From Clostridia bacterium (GTDB taxonomy: Bacteria > Bacillota > Clostridia > TANB77 > CAG-508), in contig JAFQSS010000011.1 in NCBI GenBank assembly GCA_017409455.1, forward strand, positions 29,595 to 93,594: a stretch of DNA of 64,000 bases. The letters run 5' to 3'. This document shows, one piece after another, positions 35,852 through 61,913 of this stretch. How positions within the stretch are numbered: the first letter of the stretch is position 1; every line of letters begins with the position of its first letter. A model generated the notes under the pieces. It searched no databases. It saw nothing but the letters and a program-made list of their open reading frames with translations, and was not told the origin of the DNA. Position numbers and translations under genes: made by a program.

Positions 35852-36284
35852 ACAAAAATGTAATTTTCACCCCCTTGTAATATCAAGCCTTTCAAAAGTT
35901 CCTTTTGGTCCATCTCCACCAATAAAGAATCTGTTCGAACTACAGATACAAAAATCAATCAGTAAAATGGTTGATTTTTTTGTTTGTAAAAAATCATATT
36001 CTATGTTAGTGTGTATTGCCTCGCTGCCCACCTGAGTTTTGATATGCAATGTCAAAACTCATAGGAGGTTAGGACTTATGACAGAGTCAAAGTCCTATAC
36101 TAAAAGACATTGATGAACAAGTAGCATTGTATTTGTTTAATCTTATATAAAATCTCACAAATACGTTGAAAATCAGGCAAAAAAGTGATATAATTGCCAA
36201 GCAAGAACATTTTGTAATACCTTTGAAAGTATTAAAAACTATTCGGAGGTATGAACCTCCGAATGATTATGAGGAGGAAATAAA

Positions 36285-36530
36285 ATGGAAACGGTAAAGT
36301 TAATTGAACCGACTTATGGAAGAATGGTTACCTTGCAGGTACTCAAAGAAGAACCCCTTCTTCATATGATTATCGGCATCTTAACTGCTGTAGCAGACGA
36401 AGAAAAAATTAAATCTAAGGTGTCTGGTAACACAGTCACTCTTACTTTTTCTGACGTTGCCTCTGCAGATGCTTACAAAGCGGCATTTAGGCTTAACCAG
36501 AAAAAAAGTCTTAAAGGAGAAAAGAAATAA
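36285..36530 (+). CDS. Hypothetical 81-aa protein (higher-GC cassette A)
   Basis: TTGAAA-17-TATAAT at 36166-36194; 10-bp 5'UTR hairpin 36241-36264; SD gaggagg; terminator 36827-36856 after ~300 nt of frame-broken sequence. Confidence 0.55.
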   Translation: METVKLIEPTYGRMVTLQVLKEEPLLHMIIGILTAVADEEKIKSKVSGNTVTLTFSDVASADAYKAAFRLNQKKSLKGEKK

Positions 36531-36922
36531 AAAATTCAAGGTAGGAAAATTAATCATTGCTAAAAAGATTAAATATTTAGCTGAGCTGACCCAAAAAGGT
36601 TATATAAAGAAAGGGGACTATTTTTGAAAACACATTCCAGAATACTAAGAGGCTATAACAATAACAAATTCTGTAATCGGTCTGATGAAAGAAATACAGC
36701 TCCCAGTGCAAGAAGGTGCAAGACTAATCGGAAGAAGAATATAGAATCCACGTTCTCGAAACCTTCTCTATATGCGCTTCCACCGGTATACAGTTCTAAA
36801 AAGAAGTGATAAGTTTTAAGACTTTACAAAAGGCACGGAAAATTTCCGTGCCTTTTGCTTAAAAAATATGGTATTCAAAAATTTTATTTGACATTTCCTA
36901 ATTATCTGTGTATAATAGATAT

Positions 36923-37020
36923 AGGAAATGAATAACCGCAGTGAATGCGGTTACCACTACATAAAAGTATAACAACACATTCGCAATATTGGCATACTGG
37001 AATGTGTTGTTATTTTTATT
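36923..37020 (+). ncRNA. Candidate antisense antitoxin sRNA (module 2)
   Basis: TTGACA-17-TATAAT at 36888-36916; hairpin taaccgcagtgaatgcggtta; terminator aacaacacattc..gaatgtgttgtt + T-run; 5' part homologous to the module 1 sRNA. Confidence 0.5.
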
Positions 37021-37129
37021 CCTTATCTATAATTGAATTTACATATTTTATGTATAAAATCGTTAATAAGGTTACGTTTATTGTTGCTAATACCATTAAG
37101 GCATATATTAAAAAAAGTATAAAACTCAT
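37016..37129 (-). CDS. 37-aa hydrophobic peptide, candidate type I toxin (module 2)
   Basis: SD gaggtggtg; MSFILFLIYALMVLATINVTLLTILYIKYVNSIIDKE*; TTGATT-17-TATACT at 37216-37244 on the minus strand. Confidence 0.5.
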   Translation of the reverse strand: MSFILFLIYALMVLATINVTLLTILYIKYVNSIIDKE

Positions 37130-37395
37130 AAACACCACCTCACTTTCTGATAACAAAAGTTATCGAGTGCAGTGGCAATACATATCTACTACTATGTTCA
37201 TTTCCTATGTCAGCTAGTATAACATACAATTTACAATAAATCAATATAAAACAAACGAGTTTTTGTATTTTGATAAAATTACTAAATTTTCATTAAAAAA
37301 TTTGGTAATTTATATATAAATTGATTGATATTTGTATCAATCGTTATGAGAGCCAAAAAAGTTGTAGATAACTACTTCGACGGCACCACTATAGT

Positions 37396-37432
37396 AAAAA
37401 CCAGCATTTCGCTGGTTTTCTTTTATTTTCTC
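37396..37432 (+). repeat. 37-bp direct repeat, copy 2
   Basis: Identical to 34774..34810. Confidence 0.9.
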
Positions 37433-37817
37433 GTACAATCCTTGTATCAAAAAGGTTTCGGCTTTTCTTCAAATTTTATTTTTCTCAATTTGTAAGAGAT
37501 ACTATTATTTTTTATTTTACTTATATCTATATATTATCAATTTATTATTTTCATATTTTTCTTATATCCTATCTCCTTCTAATGCATTTATAATATTATT
37601 ATTTTTATCAAAACCTTTATATATTATACAAAAATATTTTTTTAATATTTCATATACGAAATAAGTTTTTTTATATATAAAAATCTAATTTTGATAATAT
37701 TTGTACTATACTATTGTAGTATTATTTGTTTAAGGCAAATACATCTGCAAAAAGAAATTTCTTTTTGCGTGTGTATATAACACAAAGAGCTCCATCAACA
37801 GAAAGTGAGGCTACTTT

Positions 37818-38270
37818 ATGAAACGCTTTTTTACATTACTTATGGCATTGTGCCTTTGTGTAATCTCTCCTCTGACCGCTTTCGCCGCTGAGGTTGAAAC
37901 ACTCCCTGCCGCCGAAACACTTTACGTTCAGAACGAAATTACACCCGCATCTGCCAGAGCATTGACCTACAACCAGGTATGGATTGATGCTGGTAAGTAT
38001 TCCAATGGTTCTTTTACTGTTGAGAATCCCCACACTTTTATTTTCACAACTACCAATGGTACTTTGAAGATTGAATCCAACAATCCTAACGCTCAGGTCC
38101 ACATTGTCGTTCATGATGGCATCAATGTCATCCTCAACCGTACTCTTGGTCCTGGCGATGGTGAAGTGTATTTTTCCTCTCAGAGTAACTCTGCTCAATA
38201 CGCTGTGAGTTACTTTGTCTACAGTACCAACAACACCAATGGTATCAGAGTGAATTGTTGGCTGTATTAA
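37818..38270 (+). CDS. Secreted hypothetical protein (higher-GC cassette B)
   Basis: Signal peptide MKRFFTLLMALCLCVISPLTAFA|AE; SD agtgagg; terminator 38330-38358. Confidence 0.6.
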   Translation: MKRFFTLLMALCLCVISPLTAFAAEVETLPAAETLYVQNEITPASARALTYNQVWIDAGKYSNGSFTVENPHTFIFTTTNGTLKIESNNPNAQVHIVVHDGINVILNRTLGPGDGEVYFSSQSNSAQYAVSYFVYSTNNTNGIRVNCWLY

Positions 38271-38390
38271 GTTACAGTACAATTCCTCAAATTTTACTAA
38301 CTAATTGAATTTTCGCTCTTTGTGTTCAGGGAAGATGTGTTTACACATCTTCCTTTTTATATAAAATAAAAAAGCCGATTTCTCGACTTT

Positions 38391-38606
38391 TTATTTATTA
38401 ACTTCAGCTTCTAAAGCTTTAAAATCAACATTTTGTAATTCAGGATAATCTCTAATTAGTAGAGTTATCTTACTTTCAGATTTTAAATACATATCTAAAT
38501 TTTCCTGTGCAATCTTTTTCATGTTAAAGTATGAAGAAATCAATATTCCCAATGCAATTACTAATATAATAATTATCCCCAAAAATAGTTTACTCAATTT
38601 ATTCAT
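38391..38606 (-). CDS. Small N-terminally anchored protein
   Basis: 71 aa, one TM, AT-rich host-like composition, SD aggagtg. Confidence 0.45.
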   Translation of the reverse strand: MNKLSKLFLGIIIILVIALGILISSYFNMKKIAQENLDMYLKSESKITLLIRDYPELQNVDFKALEAEVNK

Positions 38607-38820
38607 AATAACTCACTCCTTTCTTCTGTACAAAATATACCTGTCTATTATTTATATTATAACACAAATCACCATTTTATGCAAATCCCCCTATTGATAA
38701 TCATGAAAATTTGCATAATTTACTAAAATGTGCTATAATGTTTAAGCAATTTTTTGCAATCCTTTTTACTTATTAATATATAGACATTTTTATAAAATAA
38801 TTATTTTAAGGAGGCCTTTT

Positions 38821-39558
38821 ATGTTAGAACTATTAAAATCTAAAGAATGGGAAATAGAACAATCTTCTTTGGCAAAAATATCCAAGGATGAAATATCATA
38901 TGAGCAGTGCCGGAGCTTTGCTTGTGAAGATATTTCCCGTAGCTTAACTCATCTAGGAGACGATTTACCATTTATCGTAGAAATACCTGAAAATACAGAA
39001 TTTCATTTTATTGGACGTGTAGATACAACTTTTGGCAATAATACTTCTTCTCCATATTATAAGAGTTTTGAAGATAGAACTTTTATATCTTTCACTACGA
39101 TAAATAATAGAAATATATCTCGGTATAAAGGAAGAATATTTTTTGCTTATAATATTATTCCAGAAGATATTGTTCATATATTTCCAATGGATAGTGATAC
39201 AAGCACAGATGCAAACTGCGAAGAAGATCTCACTCCCCTCCCCAGTTTGTGGTTAACACTACGAGAATTAGAAGATCTAACAGCAGAGTTAGGAGTTTAT
39301 AACCAAATCACGTGTAACACCAAAAGATATGGTCAAATATTGAAGCCTTTCGCAATTATTGCTTTTAATGAACTTGATGAATATACTCAAAAAGTTGCTA
39401 AAGAATTTGGCATCAGCTGTATTATTGTTCATCCTGATAAAGAAGCAATACAGTACGATAAAGACTTGTTACATGACTATTTCCAGCTCAAATATGTTTC
39501 TTCTAAAATGAAGGAAAAGTATGACTTAGAGGATAGTCGATACCTGTTTGATTATTGA
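38821..39558 (+). CDS. Hypothetical 245-aa protein (cassette C)
   Basis: TTGCAT-17-TATAAT with TGn at 38711-38739; SD aaggagg; imperfect hairpin 39585-39617. Confidence 0.6.
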   Translation: MLELLKSKEWEIEQSSLAKISKDEISYEQCRSFACEDISRSLTHLGDDLPFIVEIPENTEFHFIGRVDTTFGNNTSSPYYKSFEDRTFISFTTINNRNISRYKGRIFFAYNIIPEDIVHIFPMDSDTSTDANCEEDLTPLPSLWLTLRELEDLTAELGVYNQITCNTKRYGQILKPFAIIAFNELDEYTQKVAKEFGISCIIVHPDKEAIQYDKDLLHDYFQLKYVSSKMKEKYDLEDSRYLFDY

Positions 39559-39641
39559 TTTTAATTTTTAGTAACTAATGAAAAACCACCGTCGAAATTA
39601 ATTTTTCGCATGGTGGTCTTTCTTCTTTATGTGAATAGTTT

Positions 39642-40100
39642 TTATCTATTCAAAAGATAAATTGATAAATTCAAGTATGATGCAAACAATGCCCATAATA
39701 AATACGGAATCTGAAGTAAACCTGCCACATTATCTTTATTGTAAAACTTGATTATCATCATAACAATTAACAGAATAAGTATTAAAAGCCATATAAATGC
39801 AAACAATCTCCATTCAAAAGTAAAGAAAATAATTGACCACATGCTATTTACAAAAAGTTGTAAATAATAAATAAAATTAATTTCTGTGTCCACTAGGGAT
39901 TTACTCTCAAGTATCCCATAAGATACACCCATTAGTACATAAAGAATTGTCCAAACTATTGGAAATAGTATACTTGGCGGTGCCAAAACTGGCTGAATTA
40001 ATGTATTGTACTCCATTGAACTTGATGTAATTGCCCCAATTAATAAACCTACAGCAACTGGGATAAATATAGATTTAGCATATATTTTAAATTTTGACAT
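39642..40100 (-). CDS. tspO: TspO/MBR family tryptophan-rich sensory protein
   Basis: Five TM; PPSILFPIVWTILYVLMG and WSIIFF motifs; start moved to MSKFKIY (AGGAGG 6 nt upstream). Confidence 0.8.
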   Translation of the reverse strand: MSKFKIYAKSIFIPVAVGLLIGAITSSSMEYNTLIQPVLAPPSILFPIVWTILYVLMGVSYGILESKSLVDTEINFIYYLQLFVNSMWSIIFFTFEWRLFAFIWLLILILLIVMMIIKFYNKDNVAGLLQIPYLLWALFASYLNLSIYLLNR

Positions 40101-40241
40101 AGCTAACCTCCTTTTTATCATTTTATTAGCTGAATTTTAAAATATACAACATAAAAGATATTTTTAACATATTTTTTACTTTTTTCATATAATACCACAG
40201 TTTATTATGGTATTTTTAAGAAATGCCGGATAGGAGTTTTA

Positions 40242-41147: not shown

Positions 41148-41217
41148 TATCGTTTGACATAATATAGACTTTATGGTATAATTATCATATCAAAAATTTA
41201 TAAATGGAGGGTTTATT

Positions 41218-42147
41218 ATGGCCATCAACAACAATGCAATCAACTTCCGCACTAAATTTTCCAAGCACATTCAGACTGATATTGAGCACGAAGTTTTCGT
41301 TTCAGCTTTTGAAAAGTTCATCAATCTGGATGAACAAACCGCAATCGATATTCTTTGGCGGTTAACGTATAACCCCTATTCTGAAGCTTTATGGACAATC
41401 AAACTGGATCCTGAAACCATCCCTTCGGAAATGACTGCAGCCTTAAGAAATGAGCTACGGTATCAGTACTCTCAGTGTCATTCCAATTTTCTGACTGTTG
41501 AAGTACCTGAAGAGTACAAGGAAGCCTATTCCCTCGTCTCTTCTAATACTGATTCCATTACAGCTTATATCGTATATAAGAACTGTAATTCTATTTTGTA
41601 TTTGGATGAAACCAGTGTACAGCGTATCCTGTTCCTTTTAAGTAGCGATAAGGAAAATCACTACTTCGGCGGTCTCCGTTCTCTGGACTTCAATGTCGGA
41701 GAAGCAGAATATCTGAAGCCCTATAAAGCGCAAATTTATACTCTGTTTAATGTGATGTATGAACTGCACAAAAGTGAGGGCAGATATAATTCCAACCATA
41801 CTCCTTTCCAAGAGTTAGGAGCTATGATTCAAGAAACAGGTAACGATCTTCCTTTCACTTTTGGAGATGAAGCAGTAGAGGCTACGGAAACAACCGCTAT
41901 GGAAGAACCTCTGCACGAGGAAATCTCTTTCCAAGCAGAAGAATCGGTTCAGAAGATTGATGTGTTCAATGCAATCACAGCAGAAAAGGTACTTGAACAC
42001 AAGGATGTATTCTTTGCATTCGCGATTACTCGCGATATGTCTTGCTTAGTAGAACTAAGCAAGCTTGGCTTCGACCTAAATCAGGTTGTTGCAAAAGAAA
42101 AGGCAATCAGCGACTTTATTCAAGCTGCTGAAGCCCTGAGTGTGTGA
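41218..42147 (+). CDS. Hypothetical 309-aa protein (higher-GC cassette D)
   Basis: TTGACA-17-TATAAT at 41154-41182; SD ggaggg; terminator gaaagcggtgg..ccaccgctttc 42159-42187. Confidence 0.6.
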   Translation: MAINNNAINFRTKFSKHIQTDIEHEVFVSAFEKFINLDEQTAIDILWRLTYNPYSEALWTIKLDPETIPSEMTAALRNELRYQYSQCHSNFLTVEVPEEYKEAYSLVSSNTDSITAYIVYKNCNSILYLDETSVQRILFLLSSDKENHYFGGLRSLDFNVGEAEYLKPYKAQIYTLFNVMYELHKSEGRYNSNHTPFQELGAMIQETGNDLPFTFGDEAVEATETTAMEEPLHEEISFQAEESVQKIDVFNAITAEKVLEHKDVFFAFAITRDMSCLVELSKLGFDLNQVVAKEKAISDFIQAAEALSV

Positions 42148-42194
42148 GCAAAACCCTCGAAAGCGGTGGAAAAATTCCACCGCTTTCTTCATAA

Positions 42195-42221
42195 GGAAAA
42201 AGGGACCTGGTCCCTTTTTCC
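42195..42221. repeat. GGGACCNGGTCCC-family palindrome
   Basis: ggaaaaagggacctggtccctttttcc, 6 nt downstream of the thrS stop. Confidence 0.8.
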
Positions 42222-42226
42222 CTTTT

Positions 42227-44017
42227 CTATATTGCTTTTGTTTCTATTTCTTCTTGAATTTTATTTGTAAATTCCTCAACTGACATTTGACCAATATCTC
42301 CTGCTTTTCTTGCTCGAACAGCAACAGCATTTGCTTCTGCCTCTTTAGCCCCCATAACTAACATATATGGGACTTTTTCAAGTTGAGCTTTTCTAATTTT
42401 ATATCCAATTTTCTCATTTGAATCATCTACTTCAACTCTGATACCTTTTGCTTTTAATTTTGATTCAACTTCTCTAGCAAATCCAAGTTGATCATCTGTA
42501 ATTGGTAATATTTTTGCTTGAACTGGTGATAGCCAAACTGGAAATGCACCTTTTGTTTCTTCAATTAAGAATGATATAAATCTATCAAATGTTCCAAGAA
42601 TTGCTCTATGTATTACTACTGGTGTATGTTCTTTATTATCTTCACCTATGTACGATAATTCAAATCTACGTGGTAACAAAAAGTCTAATTGACATGTTGA
42701 TATTGTCACATCATGTCCTAATGCTGTTTTTATTTGAACATCTAGTTTTGGTCCATAGAATGCTGCTTCTCCTTCTGCTTCATAGAAGTTTAAATTTAAT
42801 TCTGTTAAAATTTGTCTTAATTGACTTTCTGCGCTTTCCCACATTTCATCATCATCAAAATATTTCTTTTTATCATTAGGATCTCTTAATGATAATCTAA
42901 ATGTATAATCATTAAATCCAAAGTCTTTATATACTGATAATATTAATTCAACAACTTTTCCAACTTCTTGTTTTATTTGTTCTGGAGTTACAAATAAATG
43001 AGCATCATTTTGGCACATTTCTCTTACTCTCTCTAAACCACAAACGTTTCCACTATTTTCATATCTAAAGTCATGTGCTAATTCTCCTATACGAATTGGT
43101 AAATCTCTATATGAACGTGTTTTATTTTTGAATATTAACATATGATGTGGACAGTTCATAGGTCTTAATACCATTTCTTCATTATCTAGTTTCATTGGTG
43201 GGAACATGTCCTCTTTGTAATGATCCCAATGTCCACTTGTTTTATATAATTCAACATTTGCTAATGAAGGGGTATAAACATGACTATATCCTAATGCAAT
43301 TTCTTTATCAGCTATGTATCTTTCTAGCAACATTCTTATTTTTCCACCATTTGGTAAATATAAAGGTAGTCCTGAACCTACTAATTCATGTGTCATAAAT
43401 AATTCAAGTTCTTTTCCTATTTTTCTATGGTCTCTTTGTTTTGCTTCTTCCAATAATCTTAAATGTTCTTCTAATTGGCTTGCTTTTGGGAAAGATACAC
43501 CATAAATTCTTTGCATTGAATCATTTTCTTGGTTTCCTTTCCAATATGCAGCTGATGTTGATAATATTTTTATAGCTTTTACTTTACCTGTTCTGTTTAT
43601 ATGTGGTCCTGCACATAAATCAATAAATTCACCTTGTTTGAAGAATGAAATTTCTTCTCCTTCTGGTAATTCTTCAATCAATTGAACTTTATATGGTTCA
43701 TCTTTTTCTTTCATTAATTTGATTGCTTCTTCTCTTGATAAAGTGCTTCTTTCAAGTGGTAAATCTTCTTTGATTATTTTTTTCATTTCTTCTTCTATTT
43801 TATTTATATCTTCTTCTGTCAATGGTTTTTCCACTCTGAAATCATAATAAAATCCATTTTCAATGGCTGGCCCTATTCCTAATTTTGTATTTGGATACAA
43901 TCTTTTTACTGCTTGTGCTAATATGTGTGATGTTGTATGCCAAAATATTTTGTTTAACTCCTCATTATTTTCTTCTAAATCTAAGATACTTCCGTCTTTT
44001 TGTATTGTTCTTATCAT
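42227..44017 (-). CDS. thrS: Threonine--tRNA ligase
   Basis: Class II motifs and HTTSHILAQAV editing-domain motif; start set at MIRTIQ (SD aaggagg). The upstream 30 codons of the listed ORF belong to the leader. Confidence 0.95.
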   Translation of the reverse strand: MIRTIQKDGSILDLEENNEELNKIFWHTTSHILAQAVKRLYPNTKLGIGPAIENGFYYDFRVEKPLTEEDINKIEEEMKKIIKEDLPLERSTLSREEAIKLMKEKDEPYKVQLIEELPEGEEISFFKQGEFIDLCAGPHINRTGKVKAIKILSTSAAYWKGNQENDSMQRIYGVSFPKASQLEEHLRLLEEAKQRDHRKIGKELELFMTHELVGSGLPLYLPNGGKIRMLLERYIADKEIALGYSHVYTPSLANVELYKTSGHWDHYKEDMFPPMKLDNEEMVLRPMNCPHHMLIFKNKTRSYRDLPIRIGELAHDFRYENSGNVCGLERVREMCQNDAHLFVTPEQIKQEVGKVVELILSVYKDFGFNDYTFRLSLRDPNDKKKYFDDDEMWESAESQLRQILTELNLNFYEAEGEAAFYGPKLDVQIKTALGHDVTISTCQLDFLLPRRFELSYIGEDNKEHTPVVIHRAILGTFDRFISFLIEETKGAFPVWLSPVQAKILPITDDQLGFAREVESKLKAKGIRVEVDDSNEKIGYKIRKAQLEKVPYMLVMGAKEAEANAVAVRARKAGDIGQMSVEEFTNKIQEEIETKAI

Positions 44018-44029
44018 ATAAATTCCTCC

Positions 44030-44255
44030 TTTATATTTTGTGGTCTGAAACACAAAATGCACCCCTATAGACTTTCGGTCTATAGGAGTGCTATTACACG
44101 GTTCCATCCCATTTTTTACTTAATTTGATTTAACGCATCTTACACGTCTAGCTTATTCACTAGAAACTTAAAGAGTTAGTTTTTCAAATATGTTTTCTTA
44201 AATCAGCTCTCAACCTTTGACTGATTTTCTCTGTTAGAAACCTTTATTTTACTTT
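44030..44255 (-). promoter_or_regulatory. T-box leader of thrS
   Basis: On the minus strand: AGAGA box, T-box-like AAAAUGGGAUGGAACCGUG, then terminator cctatagac-cgaaa-gtctatagg followed by a U-rich tract. Confidence 0.65.
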
Positions 44256-44260
44256 GTCTC

Positions 44261-45802: not shown

Positions 45803-45982
45803 TTTTTATTTCCTTTCTTTTCTTGTAATTTCTATATTCATATCATTTCTGAACTATTATAACAGATATTCTGCTATTTATAAAGAGTTTTTCAAAATTT
45901 TAATAAAAATTGGAAAAGTAAAAGTGAATTTTTTATATTTTATTAAAAACGGAGAGAATTTTTTAGTTCTCTCCGCTTTTTA

Positions 45983-46579
45983 TTACTTTATATCCTTAAT
46001 AGTTACTTTATTTACTAAACCATTTGTGCCATAGTCTAAAATAACTTCATAATATTTTCCTTCTTCAAAAGATGGTTTTAATTCAACGATTTCATTTGGG
46101 TCTGTTGTTGTTGTTTCATTATATATAACTGTTATAATTTTATCACTATTTTTCTTATTATTTGTAACTACATTGTCTAATAATGTTGTTACGAATAGTC
46201 TAGAACTTGTTCCACTGTATCTTTCAAAATCTATATTAAAAGAATCTACTTCTTGTTGATTAACTTGACTTTGAATTTGTGATTCTATACTACCTATAAA
46301 ACCTCCTACACCATCTGTTTGACTACCAAAATTATCAATTTGTTTATCAACAGTTTTTCCTACCTTAAAAATAAAACTTCCTGCAAAAATAAAACTACCT
46401 ATAAATATAACAAGAAAAATTACTATAAAAACTAAATAACCTATTCCAAAGCCTTTAGCTACTTTTTTTATTGTTTTTTTAGTTTCTTCTTTATTTCCTA
46501 ATAAAGATTCATCTACATATCTTTCATTTTCTGGTACAAATTTTTCATCTGCTCCAACATATTCACTATTTTTTTTCAT
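45983..46579 (-). CDS. Membrane-anchored hypothetical protein
   Basis: 198 aa, central TM segment. Confidence 0.4.
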   Translation of the reverse strand: MKKNSEYVGADEKFVPENERYVDESLLGNKEETKKTIKKVAKGFGIGYLVFIVIFLVIFIGSFIFAGSFIFKVGKTVDKQIDNFGSQTDGVGGFIGSIESQIQSQVNQQEVDSFNIDFERYSGTSSRLFVTTLLDNVVTNNKKNSDKIITVIYNETTTTDPNEIVELKPSFEEGKYYEVILDYGTNGLVNKVTIKDIK

Positions 46580-46600
46580 AACATTATTCTCCCTTCTATT

Positions 46601-46921
46601 TTACTCTATAACTACTGCAGTTCCTGATGCCACAACCATAAGCATCGAACCATTTTGTCCAATAGTTTCATAATCTACTTTTGTTCCAATTATTGCATTA
46701 GCTCCTATTTTTTCTGCTCTTTTTATCATTTCATTCAAAGCCTCAGCTCTTGTGTCTATTAGTTCTTCTTCATATTCTGTTGCTCTACCACCTAATACAT
46801 TAGTAATACCTGCTGTAAAATCTCTAATGAAGTTTACACCATTTATTACTTCTCCAAATACTACACCTCTGTATTCTTTTATTGTTTTCCCTTCTATTGA
46901 TGAAGTTGTTGAAATTAGCAT
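46601..46921 (-). CDS. YbjQ/UPF0145 family protein
   Basis: MLISTTSSIEGKTIKEYRGVV..GANAIIG..; start at the ATG with SD ggaggtg. Confidence 0.8.
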   Translation of the reverse strand: MLISTTSSIEGKTIKEYRGVVFGEVINGVNFIRDFTAGITNVLGGRATEYEEELIDTRAEALNEMIKRAEKIGANAIIGTKVDYETIGQNGSMLMVVASGTAVVIE

Positions 46922-47150
46922 GCCTTTCACCTCCAATTTTTACATTATATAACTATATATTTTTTTCAGCATGTTTAGAACATTTTGTTAGTAATTGTGC
47001 GTGAAACTTAACGCATAATTTAATTATTATGCATTTTTAAACTTACTTGTCAATAGTTGTGCGTTAAATTTCACGTATATTTTAATTTTATATTTGCTAT
47101 ACTAATTTTATTAATTATTGTATAGGAGGGAAATATTATGACTTTGCTAG

Positions 47151-47375
47151 ATGCTACAAAAAAAAAGAATAGATGAACTTTGCAAAACAAACAATATGAA
47201 TGTAAATCAATTAGCAATAGCTTCTGGAATTAATCCCTCTACCATTAGAAGTATCTTTAAAGTAATAACAAAATCGCCTTCTTCTGAAACTATTTATTAT
47301 ATTTGCATTGGATTTGGCATATCTTTAAAAGATTTTTATGATAGTCCTCTATTTGAGGAATTAGATGATGATTAA
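47151..47375 (+). CDS. XRE-family HTH regulator. The SD-proximal ATG at 47138 is out of frame across an A9 tract
   Basis: NVNQLAIASGINPSTIRSIF helix-turn-helix; GGAGGG at 47125-47130 serves the ATG at 47138, not 47151. Confidence 0.65.
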   Translation: MLQKKRIDELCKTNNMNVNQLAIASGINPSTIRSIFKVITKSPSSETIYYICIGFGISLKDFYDSPLFEELDDD

Positions 47376-47437
47376 AAGAGAATGATAAAATATTAAAATT
47401 TTACCATTCTCTTTTAGTTTACACATCTATTTTTCAA

Positions 47438-47977
47438 TTATTTAAAATCTATTAATATATCTTCTAACGACTTATTATCATAATTATTGCTAAAAATATA
47501 ATCATATTCAAGTCCACTATAATCTACTTTAACCATTGAAACACATCCATCATATTGTTCTTCTGTAACTAGTTTATTATTTATTGCATTACTTCTTCTC
47601 AATTCTTCATCTACTTTAATTAAAATTTTTGTATCACACTCTTGCCATATTTTTAAATAAGGTAAAAACATCCATTCAACAATAATAGTATCATTTTCTT
47701 TTGATATTTTATTTATTTCTGTTTCTACCATATTATTTAGTAACACACTTATTCCACTATCTAAATTTTCTAAATTATCAATTAACAATTTAAAATATTC
47801 TAGTTTCATTTTTATAACTTGAGGAGTTCTATCTTCTTTAGCAATAGATTCACTATTTAATATAACTTTGTCTATATCTAAAAAAGGACACTTTAATTTT
47901 TCACTTAATCTTAATGCTAGTGTTGATTTTCCTACTCCAGAATCTCCAGTTATTCCTATTAACTTCAAATCAATCAC
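47438..47977 (-). CDS. P-loop kinase-like protein (dephospho-CoA kinase / nucleoside kinase fold)
   Basis: GITGDSGVGKST Walker A at the N-terminus, 179 aa. Confidence 0.55.
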   Translation of the reverse strand: MIDLKLIGITGDSGVGKSTLALRLSEKLKCPFLDIDKVILNSESIAKEDRTPQVIKMKLEYFKLLIDNLENLDSGISVLLNNMVETEINKISKENDTIIVEWMFLPYLKIWQECDTKILIKVDEELRRSNAINNKLVTEEQYDGCVSMVKVDYSGLEYDYIFSNNYDNKSLEDILIDFK

Positions 47978-47980
47978 CTC

Positions 47981-49000
47981 TTATAAATCTTTTAATCTCT
48001 TTTCTATTTCTTCTGGTGAAGGTAACAAATTTTTCATTTGCTCTGGTAAAGTATCTCTTATTTGATAAGAGGCTACACCGATTGGTTTGTAACTATCATT
48101 TAAAGCATACTCTACAATTGTTCTATTTTTATTTTTACATATTATAATTCCTATTGATGGGTTTTCATGTTCCATTTTAACTTGTTTATCTAATGCAGTT
48201 AAATAAAATTGAAGTTGTCCTACAAATTCAGGCTTAAAATCGCCTATTTTCAATTCAATAGCAACTAAACTTTTTAAACTTCTATGATATAGTAATAAAT
48301 CAATATAAAAATCATCTCCACCAACATTTATATGATATTGATTTCCCATAAAAGCAAAATTCCCACCCATTTCTTCAAGAAATGCTCTTATGTTATTTAA
48401 TAAACTTTCTTCTAACTCTCTTTCTGAATGTTTGTCAGAAAGTTCCATAAAATCAAAAATATACTCATCTTTAACTGCTAATTTTGCTTGATTTACATAT
48501 TTTTCTGGCAATGTTTCATCAAAATTAGTTTGGTTAAGTAAATATTTTTCATAAGACTTATTTTCAATATGATTAATTAACACATCTTTTGTCCAACCAT
48601 ATTTTTTAGTCATTTTTATATAAAATTCTCTTTCAAGTTGTTCTTTGCATTTCTCCATTATGGCGATATTTTTGCTCCAGCTAATTTCTCGCACTAATGG
48701 TGCGAGATTTTCAGCATTACTATATGTAACATAAAAATTTCTCATTCTCCATAAATTACTTGAAGAAAATCCTTTAACGCCGGGGAACTCTTTTTGAATT
48801 TCTTTTGCTAACACTTCAACTATTGATTTTCCCCAACCTTTTTCATTTTGTTGATTATATATTTCTTGTCCAATACCCCAATATAAGCTTATTAAAGTCT
48901 GATTTACTGCTTTCATAGCTTCATATTGGCTATTTCTAATTTTATTTTTTATTTCTCCTATAAAATTTTTGTAATCTTCACTTATCAAATCATTCTCCAT
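47981..49000 (-). CDS. YhcG/DUF1016-family PDDEXK nuclease
   Basis: N-terminal YWGIGQEI..GWGKSIVE..FS.SNLWRMRNFY and C-terminal D..ELK nuclease core pattern. Confidence 0.75.
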   Translation of the reverse strand: MENDLISEDYKNFIGEIKNKIRNSQYEAMKAVNQTLISLYWGIGQEIYNQQNEKGWGKSIVEVLAKEIQKEFPGVKGFSSSNLWRMRNFYVTYSNAENLAPLVREISWSKNIAIMEKCKEQLEREFYIKMTKKYGWTKDVLINHIENKSYEKYLLNQTNFDETLPEKYVNQAKLAVKDEYIFDFMELSDKHSERELEESLLNNIRAFLEEMGGNFAFMGNQYHINVGGDDFYIDLLLYHRSLKSLVAIELKIGDFKPEFVGQLQFYLTALDKQVKMEHENPSIGIIICKNKNRTIVEYALNDSYKPIGVASYQIRDTLPEQMKNLLPSPEEIEKRLKDL

Positions 49001-49224
49001 AAATAAAAATCCTCCTTTTTTTAATTATGCCACAATTAGTGGCACAATTAGTTTTATTTATTTTTACATAATTTACATTATACGCTACTTTCATATTAGA
49101 ACAAAAAAAATAAAAGTATACTTGAATAAATGCATGGCATATTTAACAAATCAAACTGAAACATAAACTAAATTTAGAGTTATAAATAATGTATTATCAA
49201 AATTATTAATTTACACAATATTTC

Positions 49225-49299
49225 TGGCTGGGGCACTGTGATTCGAACACAGGAATGTCGGAGTCAGAGTCCGATGCCTTACCGCTTGGCGATGCCCCA
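49225..49299 (-). tRNA. tRNA-Gln (anticodon CTG), CCA encoded
   Basis: Hand-folded cloverleaf: 7-bp acceptor, anticodon loop cuCUGac, T-arm ctgtg-ttcgaat-cacag. Confidence 0.9.
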
Positions 49300-54991: not shown

Positions 54992-55119
54992 TTTTTACCT
55001 CTTTCGAAGTACATTTTACACGATTTTGCAATATTTTTCAAGTATATTTTGTTGTAAAAAAATAATACTATAAATAAGTTTTATTTTGTATAAAACTTTA
55101 TTTTTAAGGAGGTTTTATT

Positions 55120-55641: not shown

Positions 55642-55708
55642 TTGGTAATTTATTCTTGTTTTAACCTCTTTTCTATGTTATAATATTTTCATAGAAAAGA
55701 GGTTTTTT

Positions 55709-56158: not shown

Positions 56159-56221
56159 ATTTGACTAATTTTACATAATATGATATAATATAATTGATTA
56201 CATTTTTAGGAGGTATTCTCT

Positions 56222-56512
56222 ATGAGTAACTGTCATTATTCCCTGCAAAGGCCCGAAATCGATGAGATGGGACATGAGCTTATGAATGCTCATTACCGGT
56301 TTCTGGAGAATTTCGAAGCCTGCGAACTGCCCACTGGATGTGTCATCCATATCTACGATTTGGTAAGCAAGAAGTTTTCTACAGGCAAGGTCCACTCTTT
56401 TAAGTATAAGGATGTTCTGAATTATCAGATATCTCATTCCGAAAAAGGGTGGGAGGGAATGACGTGTATATCTGCACGTCTTGCGCGTTGCCTTATTAAG
56501 GTAGTAGCGTGA
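56222..56512 (+). CDS. Hypothetical 96-aa Cys/His-rich protein (higher-GC cassette E)
   Basis: TTGACT-17-TATAAT 56161-56189; AGGAGG 8 nt before the ATG. Confidence 0.6.
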   Translation: MSNCHYSLQRPEIDEMGHELMNAHYRFLENFEACELPTGCVIHIYDLVSKKFSTGKVHSFKYKDVLNYQISHSEKGWEGMTCISARLARCLIKVVA

Positions 56513-56519
56513 AACAAAG

Positions 56520-56555
56520 GAGCGTCACACTAGTGTATAGTGTTGACGCTCTTTT
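56520..56555 (+). terminator. Intrinsic terminator of cassette E
   Basis: gagcgtcacacta-gtgta-tagtgttgacgctc-tttt (13 bp with a 1-nt bulge). Confidence 0.75.
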
Positions 56556-56633
56556 CTATATCTTGGTACAAAAATTGACATATTTTACATAATATGATAA
56601 AATGTTACTATCATCTAAAAGGAGGAATTTCCT

Positions 56634-56936
56634 ATGTATAAACATCTGTGTCTCCCGTTTGTCAATGGCCAATCTGATATTGAGAAATTACCAAAATTTC
56701 TTGCGCATATTGGGTTTCGGCCACTGAGCACCGCAACTCCTGACAATTTTCCCGCAGGCGCTCTCGTTGTTTTGTACAATAGCCAAACTTTCACTTTTGA
56801 TACTGTTCTTGTTAACGGTTTGAGCAATGGTATCTTATTTTACTCCCATCAATGTGGCCGTAGCTCCGAGAGTTGGTGCAATACATTTTCTAGAGACAAT
56901 GGCTATGATAATTATCTTTTTAAGGTAATCTCGTAA
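56634..56936 (+). CDS. Hypothetical 100-aa protein (higher-GC cassette F)
   Basis: TTGACA-17-TAAAAT 56575-56603; AGGAGG 8 nt before the ATG. Confidence 0.6.
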   Translation: MYKHLCLPFVNGQSDIEKLPKFLAHIGFRPLSTATPDNFPAGALVVLYNSQTFTFDTVLVNGLSNGILFYSHQCGRSSESWCNTFSRDNGYDNYLFKVIS

Positions 56937-56946
56937 ACAGTAAAAA

Positions 56947-56985
56947 GGGCATCACACTAGTTTATAGTGTTGATGCTCTTTTTTT
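56947..56985. terminator. Terminator of cassette F; also placed to terminate fba (bidirectional)
   Basis: gggcatcacacta-gttta-tagtgttgatgctc-ttttttt, with an A-tract on the other side. Confidence 0.75.
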
Positions 56986-56989
56986 ATTT

Positions 56990-57922: not shown

Positions 57923-58008
57923 ATTAAATCACTCCTTCTTTTTATTGACTTCATTTTATTGCTTAATCATAGTTTTGTCAATGGGCAATTGTGATATTTA
58001 ATATATTT

Positions 58009-58176
58009 TTATTTACTGTCATATTCATAACTTCCACACATCGATTCATCAGTTTCCCTTGTTTTTACATCTGTTGTTGGCATTACATTTATTGCTTGTA
58101 AAGTACATCTTCTATTTTCTCTATCTTGATAAACACAGCTTTCAACTGTACAATTTATTTTTTGATTTTCTTCCAT
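58009..58176 (-). CDS. DUF1540-like small Cys-rich protein (not in the ORF track)
   Basis: SD ggagga; MEENQKINCTVESCVYQDRENRRCTLQAINV.. Confidence 0.55.
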   Translation of the reverse strand: MEENQKINCTVESCVYQDRENRRCTLQAINVMPTTDVKTRETDESMCGSYEYDSK

Positions 58177-58272
58177 AATTTTGTCCTCCTATTTTATTGT
58201 TACCTTTATTTTCACTTTTATTCTACAGTATATTTTAAAACTTTTTCCACATACTATATTTGTGGAGGTTTT

Positions 58273-58554
58273 ATGAAAGCAAAAGTTATATTATTTAGTG
58301 GTAAATCTGATGAAATTAACAATTTTTTAAATAAATTTTATTCAACAAAATCTGACCACGGTGATTCTACATCATGGCAAAAGGAATTTCCAAATCCTGT
58401 TGAAATCACAGAATTTATTGCTGCATTTGCAGATAATAGCAATTCTTTTGATTTGACAATGTGGGTTTCTCTCGATAAAGATGTTTTTATTAAAATTTCT
58501 CCATCTAATTCTGAGCATATAATTAAATATTTATTTGAACGATATCCATATTAA
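58273..58554 (+). CDS. Hypothetical 93-aa protein
   Basis: SD ggagg + ATG at 58273 (MKAKVILFSG..); the upstream part of the listed ORF is low-complexity. Confidence 0.5.
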   Translation: MKAKVILFSGKSDEINNFLNKFYSTKSDHGDSTSWQKEFPNPVEITEFIAAFADNSNSFDLTMWVSLDKDVFIKISPSNSEHIIKYLFERYPY

Positions 58555-60179
58555 GCAACATTTTTTCTTAAATCATTAGCATATTGTAGTGTTACCTCAT
58601 TAACTTCTCCTGAAGAAATACGTGCAATTTCTTGTAATACTTCCTGTTCATCTAATAATTTTACATTTGTACAAGTTCTTCCATTTTCTACTTTTTTGCT
58701 TATATAATAATTACTATTTGCTGATGCTGCAATAGCTGCTAAATGTGATATACATAGAATTTGATGATTTTTAGAAATGCTTTTTAATTTGCTCGCAACC
58801 GATTTGGCCGCTTTTCCACTTATTCCTGTATCTATTTCGTCAAATATCATTATTGGCATTTCATCAACTTCAGCTAATACCTTTTTTATTGCTAACATTA
58901 TTCTTGACATTTCTCCACCTGATGCTATTTTTGTTAATTGATTTTCATTTTCGCCTATATTAGTTTTTATAAATATTTCAACTTGGTCTTTTCCATCTTC
59001 ATAAAATTCATTTGCTCTATAATCTACTTTTACATTTATTTTTGCATTTTTCATTTCTAGGTCTATTAATTCTTGATTTATTTTTTCATTTAAATTTTGT
59101 GCATATTTTTTTCTTATTTCACTTATTTTATGTGCTATTTCAGTCATCTGTTGTTGTATTTGCTGTTGCTCTTTCTTCAATTTATTATTATATTCATCTA
59201 CATTTTCTATTTTCTTTATTTCTTCATCTACTTCATCTGCATATTTTAATATTTCTTCTATATTGTTTCCATATTTTCTTTTTAAATTATATATTGTGTC
59301 TAATCTTTCTTCTATTTCTTCTCGCTCTTGTTCATCAAATTCCACATCTTCTAAGTAACTGCTGATATCTCTTGATATTTCTTGTATTTGATAATAACTA
59401 TCTTTTAGGCTTACCACTGTCTCTTGATATCTTTTATCTATATCTTCTATTTTTTCTAAAGCTCTTATTGCTGTTCCTATAATATCAATTGTATTTTCTC
59501 CTATTGCCATATCAGCTTCTGATAGATTTTTAGCAATTTTTTCTGAGTTCATAAAAATATTTCTTTTTTCATCAATTTTTTCTTCTTCTCCTGGTTTTAG
59601 TTTAGCTTCTTGAATTTCGTTTAATTGATATCTTAATAAATCTAATTTTCTTTGTTTCTCTTTTTCATCTCCATAGTTTTCTCTTAGCTCTCTTTTGATT
59701 TCATTATATCTTATATATTTTTGTTTATATTCTTTCTTTAATTCAAAGATTTCTTCTCCAATAAAGTTGTCCAAATATTTTATGTGTGTCCTACTGTCTA
59801 GTAATTGTTGATTATCATTTTGTCCGTGAATTTCTATATAATTACTCATAAAACTATTTAATTCTGCAACTGTTACTAATCTCCCATTTATTTTGCACAT
59901 ATTACGACCATTTGCATATATTTCCCTTGTTACTATTATATCTCCATCTACAGAGTTTATATCTTCAGGTGAATACATACTTATTTCTACATATGAATGA
60001 TTTTCTCCTTTTCTTATCATTTCTTTAGAAAATCTGCCTCCACATATTATTCCTAATGAATCTATAATAAGTGTTTTTCCCGCCCCCGTTTCTCCTGTTA
60101 ATACATTCATTCCTTTATTTAGATTTATTTCTAAATCATCTATTATTCCTATGTTTTTTATGTGTAAATTTGTTATCAT
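58551..60179 (-). CDS. recN: DNA repair protein RecN
   Basis: GETGAGKT Walker A, long coiled coil, C-terminal ASGGE and DEIDTG. Confidence 0.95.
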   Translation of the reverse strand: MITNLHIKNIGIIDDLEINLNKGMNVLTGETGAGKTLIIDSLGIICGGRFSKEMIRKGENHSYVEISMYSPEDINSVDGDIIVTREIYANGRNMCKINGRLVTVAELNSFMSNYIEIHGQNDNQQLLDSRTHIKYLDNFIGEEIFELKKEYKQKYIRYNEIKRELRENYGDEKEKQRKLDLLRYQLNEIQEAKLKPGEEEKIDEKRNIFMNSEKIAKNLSEADMAIGENTIDIIGTAIRALEKIEDIDKRYQETVVSLKDSYYQIQEISRDISSYLEDVEFDEQEREEIEERLDTIYNLKRKYGNNIEEILKYADEVDEEIKKIENVDEYNNKLKKEQQQIQQQMTEIAHKISEIRKKYAQNLNEKINQELIDLEMKNAKINVKVDYRANEFYEDGKDQVEIFIKTNIGENENQLTKIASGGEMSRIMLAIKKVLAEVDEMPIMIFDEIDTGISGKAAKSVASKLKSISKNHQILCISHLAAIAASANSNYYISKKVENGRTCTNVKLLDEQEVLQEIARISSGEVNEVTLQYANDLRKNVA

Positions 60180-60265
60180 GATTTACCTCCTTAGCGAACA
60201 TCTGTGCTCATTATATCAAGTTTTATTTTTTTGTCAATAGTTTTTCGAACTTTTTTTCGTTTTTA

Positions 60266-61321
60266 TTATCCAACTTCTTTTCTTATTTTTTCAATTTCTT
60301 CTTTATTGGCTCCTGTCGCTTGTTTTATAAAGTCATCCTCTAAGTTCATTTTTATCATTCTTTCTATTGTTTGTTTTATTGCTTGTGCTAATCCCTCTGC
60401 TAATCCCTCTGCTCTCCCTTCGCTTCTCGCAATTCTTTTATTTCTTCTAAATTCTGCACCTATTCTTTCTTGTATTGTACTCATTTCTTCTTCACACTCA
60501 CTTTCTTCAAATATTTTAATAATTTCTTTTTTAATTTCTTCTTCAATTTCTTCATATAGATATAAAATAATTCTTTTCAATTTTTCGATATCTTTACTTT
60601 TACTATTTTTTATTATTATTTTTAAATTCTCGAGAACTTCTTCATTATTTTTACATTTTTCTAATATAATAACATTTCCAAGTAAAGCTTTACATTGTAA
60701 TAATGCTTCTATTTCATACTTGTTTACATCAATTAGTTTATAACTTAAGTCTATTATTTCATCTTCATATCCTTCTTTATGGATTTGGCTCATTGCAAAT
60801 GAATTACTAGCTTTCCATTTTATCTCTCCTGTATATAAAACTATAGGAACTACTTTGGGATATCGATACGTTGAATTATTTATTTGTTGTTCTTCTACTA
60901 CTCTTCTTATTATTTCAACACAATAATTTAAAATTCTATATGGCATTGAATAATCTACTTTTGTTTGATGTTCTACTAGAAAATATATTTCTTGTCCTTT
61001 TATTTTATATACAATGTCTGCTTGTTTATATTTAAAGTCTTTTGTTATGTAGTTTTCAGTATAATTTTCTAATTCATCTACATTGACTTTATGTTTCGTA
61101 AAATTGTTTATAAACTGAGCCATTTCTTTTGGATTTTGTAAAATTTCTTTGAAGATTTTATCATGCTTTTTATCTCCTGTTTTTTTCTTACTTTCTTCTG
61201 TTGTGTATGCTACACTTTCTTCTTTAGCGCATAAAGTATCTTTTGAGTCATAACAATATAAACTATCGCAATAGTTTAAGTAATCCTCATATGTAAATTC
61301 ATATTTTTCGATAAGCAACAC
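60266..61321 (-). CDS. Rpn/YhgA-like recombination-promoting nuclease (PDDEXK, transposase_31-like)
   Basis: HDKIFKEIL..ADIVYK..YFLVEHQ..MPYRILNY..PIVLYTG pattern; start codon uncertain (TTG/GTG). Confidence 0.75.
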   Translation of the reverse strand: MLLIEKYEFTYEDYLNYCDSLYCYDSKDTLCAKEESVAYTTEESKKKTGDKKHDKIFKEILQNPKEMAQFINNFTKHKVNVDELENYTENYITKDFKYKQADIVYKIKGQEIYFLVEHQTKVDYSMPYRILNYCVEIIRRVVEEQQINNSTYRYPKVVPIVLYTGEIKWKASNSFAMSQIHKEGYEDEIIDLSYKLIDVNKYEIEALLQCKALLGNVIILEKCKNNEEVLENLKIIIKNSKSKDIEKLKRIILYLYEEIEEEIKKEIIKIFEESECEEEMSTIQERIGAEFRRNKRIARSEGRAEGLAEGLAQAIKQTIERMIKMNLEDDFIKQATGANKEEIEKIRKEVG

Positions 61322-61562
61322 TCCTTTTCTTTGATTTTTTCTTAATTAATAGACTTAAATTCGAATTAATTATTTGATATCTTAAAAATTTTAGAAATTG
61401 AATTTTTTACTAAAGCAAGAAAAGCTTTAGATTTAAATTATGTAATTATAATAGCATATCCGTTTTTCTTTTTCAAGTAGTTTAGTTAAATTTGACAATT
61501 ATGTTGATTTTATGTATAATATATATGCTTAATTTTTGAAAAAACAACAGGAGGTTTTCATT

Positions 61563-61862
61563 ATGAAAGAAGAAATTACCCAAGTAAAATTCAGCAAGGA
61601 ATATGATGGAAAAGAGGTTTCAGTCGTCTGCACCCGCGATCAGCTGTATTCTTGGATCTGGAAATGCAATTTCAACAAAATATCTTTGTTGAACATCGCA
61701 CACATTGTGTTCGAATTGTTTAATTCTTCAATTTTAGGCGACGCCAAGCTTTTACAGCTGCATGTCAACGACAACTATCGTTTCTCCGTGGAAAAGTCTA
61801 CAGAAAACAACACTTTTACACATTATTTGGAAGAAATTGCTTCTAAATGGTACGTTGGGTAA
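61563..61862 (+). CDS. Hypothetical 99-aa protein (higher-GC cassette G)
   Basis: TTGACA-17-TATAAT 61492-61520; SD aggagg; terminator aaggatgatata..tatatcatcctt 61867-61906. Confidence 0.6.
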   Translation: MKEEITQVKFSKEYDGKEVSVVCTRDQLYSWIWKCNFNKISLLNIAHIVFELFNSSILGDAKLLQLHVNDNYRFSVEKSTENNTFTHYLEEIASKWYVG

Positions 61863-61913
61863 TGCCAAAAGGATGATATAAGTAAAATTTTACTATATCA
61901 TCCTTTCAATTTT

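Follow-up and report, generated by a model that had tools for sequence, protein, structure and literature searches.

Why should a very AT-rich bacterial chromosome carry, between its core genes, short orphan genes that are markedly richer in G and C, and is their composition the mark of a recent arrival? The question is raised by a 64,000-nucleotide stretch of the genome of a Clostridia bacterium (assembly GCA_017409455.1, contig JAFQSS010000011.1, positions 29,595 to 93,594; C10:29595-93594), hereafter the window. A preliminary description of this DNA, made from the letters alone, had picked out seven open reading frames (ORFs), the cassettes A to G, as compact units of foreign composition, each with its own expression signals. 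The assembly amounts to 1.33 Mb in 34 contigs with a GC content of 28.5% and a completeness of about 92%, and the genus to which it belongs is large, with more than 200 species. The reading favoured here, to which a probability of roughly 55% is given, is that the cassettes are independently transcribed accessory genes and a chromosomal equivalent of the phage genes known as morons. Their GC-rich codon usage would be a stable trait, and they may have a role in genetic conflict.

Structure and composition of the cassettes

The seven ORFs are all present, with coordinates as first assigned. The features are as follows, with positions counted from the first letter of the window and with GC3 denoting the GC content of third codon positions.

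36166..36194, plus strand, promoter of A, TTGAAA-17-TATAAT with TG
36285..36530, plus strand, ORF of cassette A, 81 amino acids, GC3 0.33
37818..38270, plus strand, ORF of cassette B, 150 amino acids, signal peptide, GC3 0.43
38328..38355, plus strand, terminator with a 12-bp stem, common to B and the convergent small gene
38391..38606, minus strand, AT-rich ORF of 71 amino acids, convergent with B
38710-38739, plus strand, best promoter of C, TTTGCA-18-TATAAT
38821..39558, plus strand, ORF of cassette C, 245 amino acids, GC3 0.23
about 39585-39617, plus strand, terminator of C
41154..41182, plus strand, promoter of D, TTGACA-17-TATAAT with TG, 12/12
41218..42147, plus strand, ORF of cassette D, 309 amino acids, GC3 0.41
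42159..42187, plus strand, terminator of D, -21.8 kcal/mol
56161..56189, plus strand, promoter of E, TTGACT-17-TATAAT with TG
56222..56512, plus strand, ORF of cassette E, 96 amino acids, GC3 0.47
56516..56555, plus strand, terminator of E, -23.2 kcal/mol
56575..56603, plus strand, promoter of F, TTGACA-17-TAAAAT with TG
56634..56936, plus strand, ORF of cassette F, 100 amino acids, GC3 0.38
56942..56983, plus strand, terminator of F, -22.0 kcal/mol
61492..61520, plus strand, promoter of G, TTGACA-17-TATAAT, 12/12
61563..61862, plus strand, ORF of cassette G, 99 amino acids, GC3 0.47
61868..61906, plus strand, terminator of G, -17.8 kcal/mol

A genome-wide baseline was taken from 1,196 ORF-genes called with a codon-usage model, for which GC3 has a mean of 0.145, a standard deviation of 0.036 and a 99th percentile of 0.26. 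Cassettes A, B and D to G lie above the 99.8th percentile of this distribution and C at the 96.5th, so the deviant composition ascribed to all seven is strong in the former but only mild in C.

Promoters with a spacing of exactly 17 bp had been reported for six cassettes. Those of A, D, E, F and G match the consensus at 11-12 of 12 positions, four of the five (A, D, E, F) having an extended -10 TG as well, but the best site of C matches at 10 of 12 and has an 18-nt spacer; B lacks a consensus promoter, as had been noted. Since promoter-like sites are, all told, as numerous in the region as would be expected from shuffled sequence, only near-perfect sites are informative, and the sites matching at 11-12 positions are clustered before cassettes. 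A Shine-Dalgarno (SD) sequence of the form AGGAGG or GGAGG lies 6-9 nt before the ATG of A and of C to G, but the site of B is weaker (GTGAGG) than the description of seven strong sites allowed; this signal is in any case not distinctive here, because native genes use SD sites too. The terminator hairpin, also attributed to every cassette, is found in B to G, at -17.8 to -23.2 kcal/mol and followed by a U-run, but no terminator was found within 70 nt downstream of A (best structure -6.3 kcal/mol). In C to G the 60 nt upstream of the start are AT-rich (0.18-0.23 GC), and the GC content climbs at the start codon.

It had further been remarked that two cassettes adjoin GC-rich palindromes. The palindrome AAAGGGACCWGGTCCCTTT at 42195-42221 belongs to a dispersed element with about 88 copies in the genome, often paired 27 nt apart. 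The link does not hold: just two of the 88 copies lie beside high-GC ORFs, where about three would be expected by chance, and the element is found at gene ends generally, with no tie to high-GC genes.

A class of high-GC genes in the genome

Similar cassettes were sought throughout the genome among ORFs lying in gaps between native genes, on both strands. About 38 units of this type were recovered, again on both strands, a number that partly includes those of the window. The 38 high-GC ORFs were compared with native genes having an upstream gap of at least 120 nt. Near-consensus promoters, defined by a promoter score of 11.5 or more, precede 50% of the former and 11% of the latter (Mann-Whitney p = 1e-5), and the 70 nt downstream fold with a mean of -18.1 kcal/mol in high-GC ORFs against -11.0 in native genes (p = 7e-8); in SD use the two sets are no different. 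By composition and expression architecture the seven belong to a real class, genome-wide, and they are not conserved core genes of ordinary composition. When 20 other members of the class were compared with Pfam, 16 had no domain, and the remaining four carry a Spo0A C-terminal domain without receiver, an ANT(2'')-like nucleotidyltransferase, a methyltransferase and a SocA/Panacea antitoxin.

The seven cassettes share the plus strand, as described, but this is the minority strand, so that they run against the prevailing direction of the native genes; GC skew is negative along the entire plus strand of the window. Orientation was scored against the local majority strand for 40 ORFs from the high-GC screen and for 999 native genes. 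The majority strand is followed by 885 of the 999 native genes (89%) and by 15 of the 40 high-GC ORFs (p = 2e-14), the latter being near an even split as judged by eye. An explanation of the shared orientation by the leading strand fails, because the cassettes are head-on.

Native codons are characteristically A-ending, with third-position A at 0.52, ATA making up 57% of isoleucine codons, TTA 64% of leucine and AGA 81% of arginine codons. In the cassettes third-position A falls to 0.22, with third-position T unchanged, and ATA provides 6% of isoleucine codons. Codons that are nearly absent from native genes are in regular use there, namely CTG (26% of leucine codons, against 1% in native genes), CCC (35%), CGG (17%) and GTC (22%). 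The shift extends beyond third positions, as GC contents at first (GC1) and second (GC2) positions are 0.46 and 0.34 against 0.405 and 0.296 in native genes, and the proteins are lower in Ile, Lys and Asn and about twofold richer in Cys, Trp and His. At 26, the tRNA genes of this incomplete assembly are too few to test codon adaptation by tRNA repertoire. Third-position skew in the high-GC genes is G over C where these are co-oriented and C over G where they are head-on, matching native genes, which suggests a residence long enough to take on the asymmetry of the host.

Two general causes of the codon shift were considered and rejected. Translational selection in highly expressed genes was set aside, high expression not being the cause because the ribosomal-protein genes (39 genes of the ribosomal cluster) have a GC3 of 0.133. 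Head-on orientation as such does not raise GC either, since the 114 native head-on genes have a GC3 of 0.135, the same as co-oriented ones.

Some further members and relatives of the class deserve mention. The loci C6:26102-26710 and C17:18854-19498 are a high-GC gene for the Spo0A C-terminal DNA-binding domain without receiver and a second adenylate kinase gene of 50% GC. An attempt to trace a donor through this extra GC-rich adenylate kinase revealed none, the best match among about 400 Clostridia homologues being 48% identical. Three high-GC genes (C27:60903-61733, C27:63556-64299 and C20:46572-47237) appear by eye to be a paralogous trio, and C20:51647-52000 and C20:54533-54892 a paralogous pair on the same basis; these groups suggest local duplication like that of E and F, described below. 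Many species of the genus (L107-L122) have, at unrelated loci, a 29-nt promoter that resembles TTGACTAATTTTACATAATATGATATAAT even in its spacer and often precedes small ORFs of 57-190 codons with raised GC3 (0.23-0.57).

Persistence of the composition at the D and G loci

Cassette D is the best case for following a member of the class through time. The order tspO, M14 peptidase gene, D, thrS is kept in six relatives (L091, L092, L093, L008, L010 and G004), across which the D protein is 80, 73, 71, 59 and 39% identical, down to 31%, against 95-80% for the threonyl-tRNA synthetase. At the nucleotide level the flanks are about 93% identical but the interior of D about 60%, and the profile is mosaic, the last 150 nt of D being 94% identical to L008. 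In the closest pair the synonymous divergence (dS) of D is 0.37, with flanks at 0.33 and 0.71; in the comparison with L008 it is 1.56, with flanks at 0.27-0.36, and the ratio of D to flank dS reaches 5x in some pairs. This pattern fits vertical descent under relaxed purifying selection, with an occasional swap for a distant allele. In G003 the M14 and thrS genes are adjacent and D is absent.

The high GC content of D accompanies it throughout. Eight D-family genes have a GC3 of 0.35-0.62 and their M14 and thrS neighbours one of 0.08-0.20, and one of the eight, a member of 29% identity at another locus on a contig of 27.5% GC, is likewise equipped with TTGACA-17-TATAAT, GAGGAGG and a hairpin. 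Likewise, the homolog of G in L167 has a GC3 of 0.42 between flanks of 0.14-0.18. A two-state estimate based on the flanks puts (u+v)2t at 0.5-1.6 for comparisons of the window with close relatives, from which 25-55% of the excess GC3 would be expected to have been lost per lineage since the split from L091 if D were out of equilibrium. Even alleles saturated at synonymous sites are all GC-rich, and the composition of D appears not to be fading, because GC3 stands at 0.35-0.62 in every AT-rich host examined. All the contexts examined for homologues of A, B, D and G are AT-rich contigs. The foreign composition had been taken to point to acquisition from outside; as a sign of recent import it is not supported by D and G, whose GC3 is high in all relatives while the hosts are AT-rich. 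Recent import from a donor of intermediate GC is therefore unlikely for D and G; for E/F and for A to C it is possible.

Several variants of the D locus were observed. An extra orphan gene of 126 amino acids lies between D and thrS in L091 (L091:7026-7406), and an AT-rich gene of 774 amino acids between the M14 peptidase gene and D in L010 (L010:1570-3894). In G004 (L006:6424-7369) the M14 peptidase beside D is in two ORFs of 190 and 121 codons, possibly through a frameshift or as a pseudogene. In the window, the thrS ORF (42227-44107, 626 codons) extends 30 codons further at its 5' end than the 596-597-codon calls in close relatives, and its true start is probably Met31.

Cassette G is flanked by a gene for a YhgA-like transposase (60266-61321, minus strand) and by the 3' end of uvrA. 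The same order of YhgA-like transposase, G and uvrA is found in L167, where the identities with the window are 63% for G, 96% for UvrA and 78% for the transposase; in other members of the genus the gene order beyond the 3' end of uvrA is not conserved. The YhgA-like (Transposase_31) gene has a 72%-identical paralogue in the genome and many matches of 65-72% across the genus. Upstream of G and adjoining this gene, within 58551-61321, is a gene for a 542-residue SMC/AAA ATPase which matches the mad3, AriA and PtuA defence models.

Homologues and coding status

None of the seven proteins had been recognised in the preliminary description, and none found a match among known families: PHROGs gave no match for A to G, PADLOC none at E <= 0.01 and Pfam none at E <= 1, save sub-threshold noise for G. 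A phage or plasmid origin was rejected, there being no matches in 50,697 phage records, 72,556 plasmids or IMG/VR. No link to immunity or anti-defence, which had been offered as speculation, was found by PADLOC, PHROGs, Pfam or PDB-fold searches. The predicted signal peptide of B was borne out.

Cassettes A, B, C, E, F and G were joined into one query and searched for in 200 genomes from the order and in 200 genus species. No homologue of E, F or G was found in either set. C has homologues in 3 of the 200 genus species (51-57% identity, GC near native), B in two genus species (42-43%) with weak matches in other genera, and A has weak homologues in few species, some from other genera, at other sites and with 32-51% identity. 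D is present in 2 of 24 genus species. Much larger protein collections brought small families to light. Among 5.8 billion proteins the relatives number 28 for D (80-29% identity), 12 for G (67-55%) and 12 for B (85-42%), all of them without a protein name or a Pfam domain, and F has 14 relatives among 1.8 billion representatives. The F family comprises single forms of about 100 amino acids, forms of about 200 with two matched stretches and two longer forms (306 and 324 amino acids) with several; E aligns as a divergent member of it.

The ratio of nonsynonymous to synonymous substitution rates (dN/dS) is 0.17-0.33 for D and 0.32 for G, and conserved motifs are present in the alignments of D, F and G, interspersed in that of G with hypervariable patches. 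GC1 exceeds GC2 in the cassettes. The AlphaFold model of D, with a mean predicted local distance difference test score (pLDDT) of 83.5, shows an all-alpha domain over residues 10-190, followed by a linker that is acidic and disordered (215-247) and by a small helical domain at the C-terminus; a fold search with it gave no PDB match (best E = 0.76). The model of F is alpha/beta (pLDDT 90.4) and its resemblance to CHAP and SH3-like folds is insignificant (E = 0.035); no conserved catalytic residues were found in the alignment of the F family. An Rfam scan of the window returned the transfer-messenger RNA (tmRNA) gene (34416-34766) and one tRNA, and nothing else.

The smpB-fba locus

Most genus species, like the nearest metagenome relatives, have only 40-130 bp between smpB and fba, and neither E nor F is present in L011, in L012 or in the majority of genus species. 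The two cassettes are 75% identical in the promoter region and 81% in the 3' untranslated region and terminator, where one stem change is compensatory, against 59% in the DNA of the ORFs and 22% in protein. The shared promoter and terminator flanks are found at this locus alone, and E and F are therefore a local tandem duplicate whose coding bodies are diverging fast. The same confinement within the genome led to the rejection of the E/F promoter and terminator as a portable genome-wide scaffold. In other species, a similar promoter of 29 nt does precede small ORFs. The gap was also considered as a dedicated slot for GC-rich cassettes, but this found no support, the inserts in other species being mostly AT-rich genes on the minus strand. 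In L011, the nearest metagenome relative, the gap (L011:4445-4560) has expression signals but no ORF between them: a homologue of the E promoter (TTGACT-17-TACAAT) is followed after some 45 nt by a hairpin terminator. This element would be an expression slot that has lost its gene, or else a gene for a small RNA.

The tmRNA island and other variable sites

Cassettes A, B and C lie together in a variable island downstream of the tmRNA gene, with the following features.

34767..39638, no strand assigned, variable island of 4.9 kb 3' of tmRNA, with A, B, C and small toxin-like ORFs
34774..34810, plus strand, first copy of an exact 37-bp direct repeat, containing the tmRNA terminator hairpin
37396-37432, second copy of the 37-bp direct repeat

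By BLASTN, window positions 34767-39638 are replaced in L091, with flanks 90-94% identical, by 729 bp with a histidine-phosphatase gene, and in L092 a single histidine-phosphatase gene likewise lies between the end of tmRNA and tspO. The 37-bp repeats bracket a segment of 2.6 kb, resembling one bounded by attachment (att) sites, which contains A. B and the convergent 71-codon gene (38391-38606) make up a two-gene module that is kept in L168 and L171, and the 12 homologues of B (85-42% identity) occur in other genomic contexts, at unrelated sites in other species. The GC content of A and B homologues elsewhere is raised relative to that of their neighbours. Also in the island, at 36888-37217, a perfect TTGACA-17-TATAAT stands before an ORF of 90 codons whose composition is just modestly shifted (GC 0.29, GC3 0.30) and for which neither Pfam nor PHROGs gave a match; it is a further stand-alone unit.

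A second island, of 3.4 kb (45842-49224), lies beside tRNA-Gln (49228-49299), and L091 has 378 bp in its place. AT-rich, unlike the cassettes, it includes one gene (47981-49000) whose product strongly matches PDC-S02, a candidate defence nuclease, and another for a P-loop protein.

A common acquisition mechanism, suggested in the preliminary description from the uniformity of the units, is not supported, given this diversity of histories: A is bounded by repeats at tmRNA, B travels with a 71-codon gene at other sites, D and G are syntenic residents with divergent alleles, and E and F are a local tandem duplication.

Alternative explanations

The alternative that survives best, though unlikely, is recent horizontal transfer from donors of intermediate GC, such as gut Firmicutes, with drift towards AT still incomplete. 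The codon usage of the cassettes (CTG, CAG, AAG, ATC and GGC) resembles that of such Firmicutes; E and F are absent from the closest relatives, A to C sit in an integration island at the tmRNA gene, and other high-GC genes are xenologue-like copies of adenylate kinase and tryptophanyl-tRNA synthetase. However, the contexts of A, B, D and G homologues are all AT-rich, D and G have stayed syntenic over a flank dS of 0.3-0.7 with GC3 still at 0.35-0.62, and high-GC genes bear the strand skew of the host. The adenylate kinase, at no more than 48% identity to its roughly 400 Clostridia homologues, leaves no donor visible.

Rather less probable is a separate equilibrium in which selection for A-poor, GC-richer codons or messages maintains a codon-defined expression compartment, whose messages might still be translated or remain stable when the A/U-rich messages of the host are untranslated or unstable. 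The composition does appear to have stayed stationary while the alleles diverged deeply, the shift is a specific one in which third-position A is halved and T unchanged, the rise in GC begins at the start codon while the 60 nt upstream are AT-rich in C to G, and the same unit design occurs in other species of the genus. Nevertheless, in the closest pair D and its flanks have the same dS, so that no sign of strong synonymous constraint is seen, and the ribosomal-protein GC3 of 0.133 means that high expression alone does not select GC. As GC1, GC2 and amino acid usage are shifted too, codon selection alone is an insufficient explanation.

A local mutational regime, by which head-on orientation and strong transcription would lead to mutagenesis through replication-transcription conflict, speeding the evolution of the genes and moving their composition away from the AT bias of the genome, is very improbable. 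It would accord with the head-on orientation of all seven cassettes and of 25 of 40 high-GC ORFs genome-wide, with the near-consensus promoters and with a dN above that of neighbours. It is largely refuted by the 114 native head-on genes with their GC3 of 0.135; moreover, the 15 of 40 high-GC ORFs that are co-oriented have a similar GC3, dS of D is not raised in the closest pair, and the 60 nt upstream of the start in C to G are AT-rich.

Finally, that the cassettes are not genes at all can be given almost no weight: GC-rich islands in AT-rich genomes are often structured RNAs and a 148-codon antisense ORF overlaps B, but non-coding RNAs or chance ORFs are opposed by the Rfam result, dN/dS below 0.35, conserved protein motifs, GC1 above GC2, SD sites and confident AlphaFold models, and are already refuted for D, F and G, while chimeric assembly of, or contamination in, a metagenome-assembled genome is opposed by the recurrence of these units, with the same core genes on either side, in assemblies made independently from different samples.

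A proposed model of autonomous accessory genes

In the reading favoured here, a near-consensus promoter for sigma-A would drive a monocistronic, SD-led mRNA in five of the seven units, and in six a strong intrinsic terminator would bring it to an end. As the units run counter to the prevailing gene direction, this terminator may also shield the convergent core gene from read-through. The predicted products are small, fast-evolving and lineage-restricted proteins, apparently under purifying selection, in tiny families with no known relatives. The sites would be variable spots in a conserved AT-rich backbone (the tmRNA island, M14-thrS, smpB-fba and the end of uvrA), with turnover through site-specific integration at the tmRNA gene, local duplication as in E/F, and whole-allele replacement by homologous recombination through conserved flanks. 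GC-rich, A-poor codon usage is taken to be a stable family trait and not a fading trace of import. A strain-specific role in conflict with phages, mobile elements or competitors may be inferred from hypervariability, strong stand-alone expression and defence-type neighbours.

Several points weigh against this reading. The seven are not uniform, C being mild in composition, B having no promoter and A no terminator. The case for allele exchange is one of identity profiles and dS ratios. Polarised changes in D are about as frequent from AT to GC as from GC to AT, but the thrS and M14 controls gave an impossible excess of AT to GC changes, a parsimony bias. The genes of the defence-type ATPase, the PDC-S02 nuclease and the YhgA transposase have a GC3 of 0.13-0.16, and because these neighbouring accessory genes are AT-rich the class is narrower than 'accessory'. 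No evidence points to any particular function.

Relation to known systems

A moron is an autonomous prophage gene with a sigma-70-type promoter, a factor-independent terminator and a deviant G+C content (PMC3714127). The cassettes resemble morons in that a single gene would lie between promoter and terminator, as predicted for D to G (A has no terminator and B no promoter), in that E/F, A to C and D interrupt regions which are contiguous or otherwise filled in relatives, in a G+C content that differs from the surroundings (GC3 0.33-0.47, and 0.23 in C, against 0.145), and in a predicted expression independent of neighbouring genes. Unlike morons, they lie between chromosomal housekeeping genes (tspO, M14, thrS, smpB, fba, uvrA) and not in a prophage, they have no relatives in PHROGs, IMG/VR or phage records, and only A is in an att-like bounded remnant. 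Furthermore, D and G are long-term residents, whereas the deviant composition of morons is read as recent transfer.

The minimal mobile elements of Neisseria, alternative genes between conserved flanks which are exchanged by transformation and homologous recombination (PMC3787668, PMC1797815), offer a second parallel. Alternative content, or none, is found at tmRNA-tspO, smpB-fba and D-thrS; mobility genes are lacking from D and E/F, and the identity profile of D is mosaic. The hosts here, however, belong to a Clostridia lineage that is not known to be naturally transformable. The cassettes also differ in forming a compositional class with consensus promoters, and in the direct repeats on either side of A and the transposase gene next to G.

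The comQXP locus of Bacillus and the agr locus of Staphylococcus are polymorphic specificity loci with divergent alleles between conserved flanks. As with these, alleles of a resident gene diverge here far beyond their neighbours; the cassettes are, however, unrelated to them in sequence or domains, have no partner receptor gene and give no evidence of signalling, and comQXP and agr are not known for a compositional anomaly. With integron cassettes they share the form of compact single-ORF units, many of them orphans, gathered at particular sites. However, they have no shared attC-like site, the seven terminators differ from each other, no integrase gene lies beside D, E/F or G, and they have their own promoters, which integron cassettes typically lack. 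No description of stable GC-rich resident orphans in AT-rich hosts was found in full-text literature searches aimed at this pattern.

Significance

Atypical base composition is a standard marker of recent transfer, and genes so marked are expected to drift towards the composition of the host. D and G, at least, break this expectation, as they occupy the same site in relatives, their divergence is saturated, their GC3 is 3-4x that of neighbours and all hosts are AT-rich. If this is confirmed under phylogenetic models, then either composition-based detection of transfer misreads resident genes, or some force, such as message selection or an unseen reservoir, acts on them. A more far-reaching proposal, which must be regarded as speculative and improbable at present, is that small and very AT-rich genomes such as those of this genus hold a second compartment of autonomous, fast-evolving orphans with its own GC equilibrium, set by message selection. 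A possible benefit would be messages that stay translatable or stable during a shutdown of A/U-rich ones, for example in abortive infection based on ribonuclease (RNase) or phage takeover, and codon composition, if this were true, would amount to an expression code for a conflict regulon. The class as a whole offers about 30 proteins of unknown fold and function, for which strong expression is predicted, in an abundant uncultured gut lineage, and these may serve as targets for functional work.

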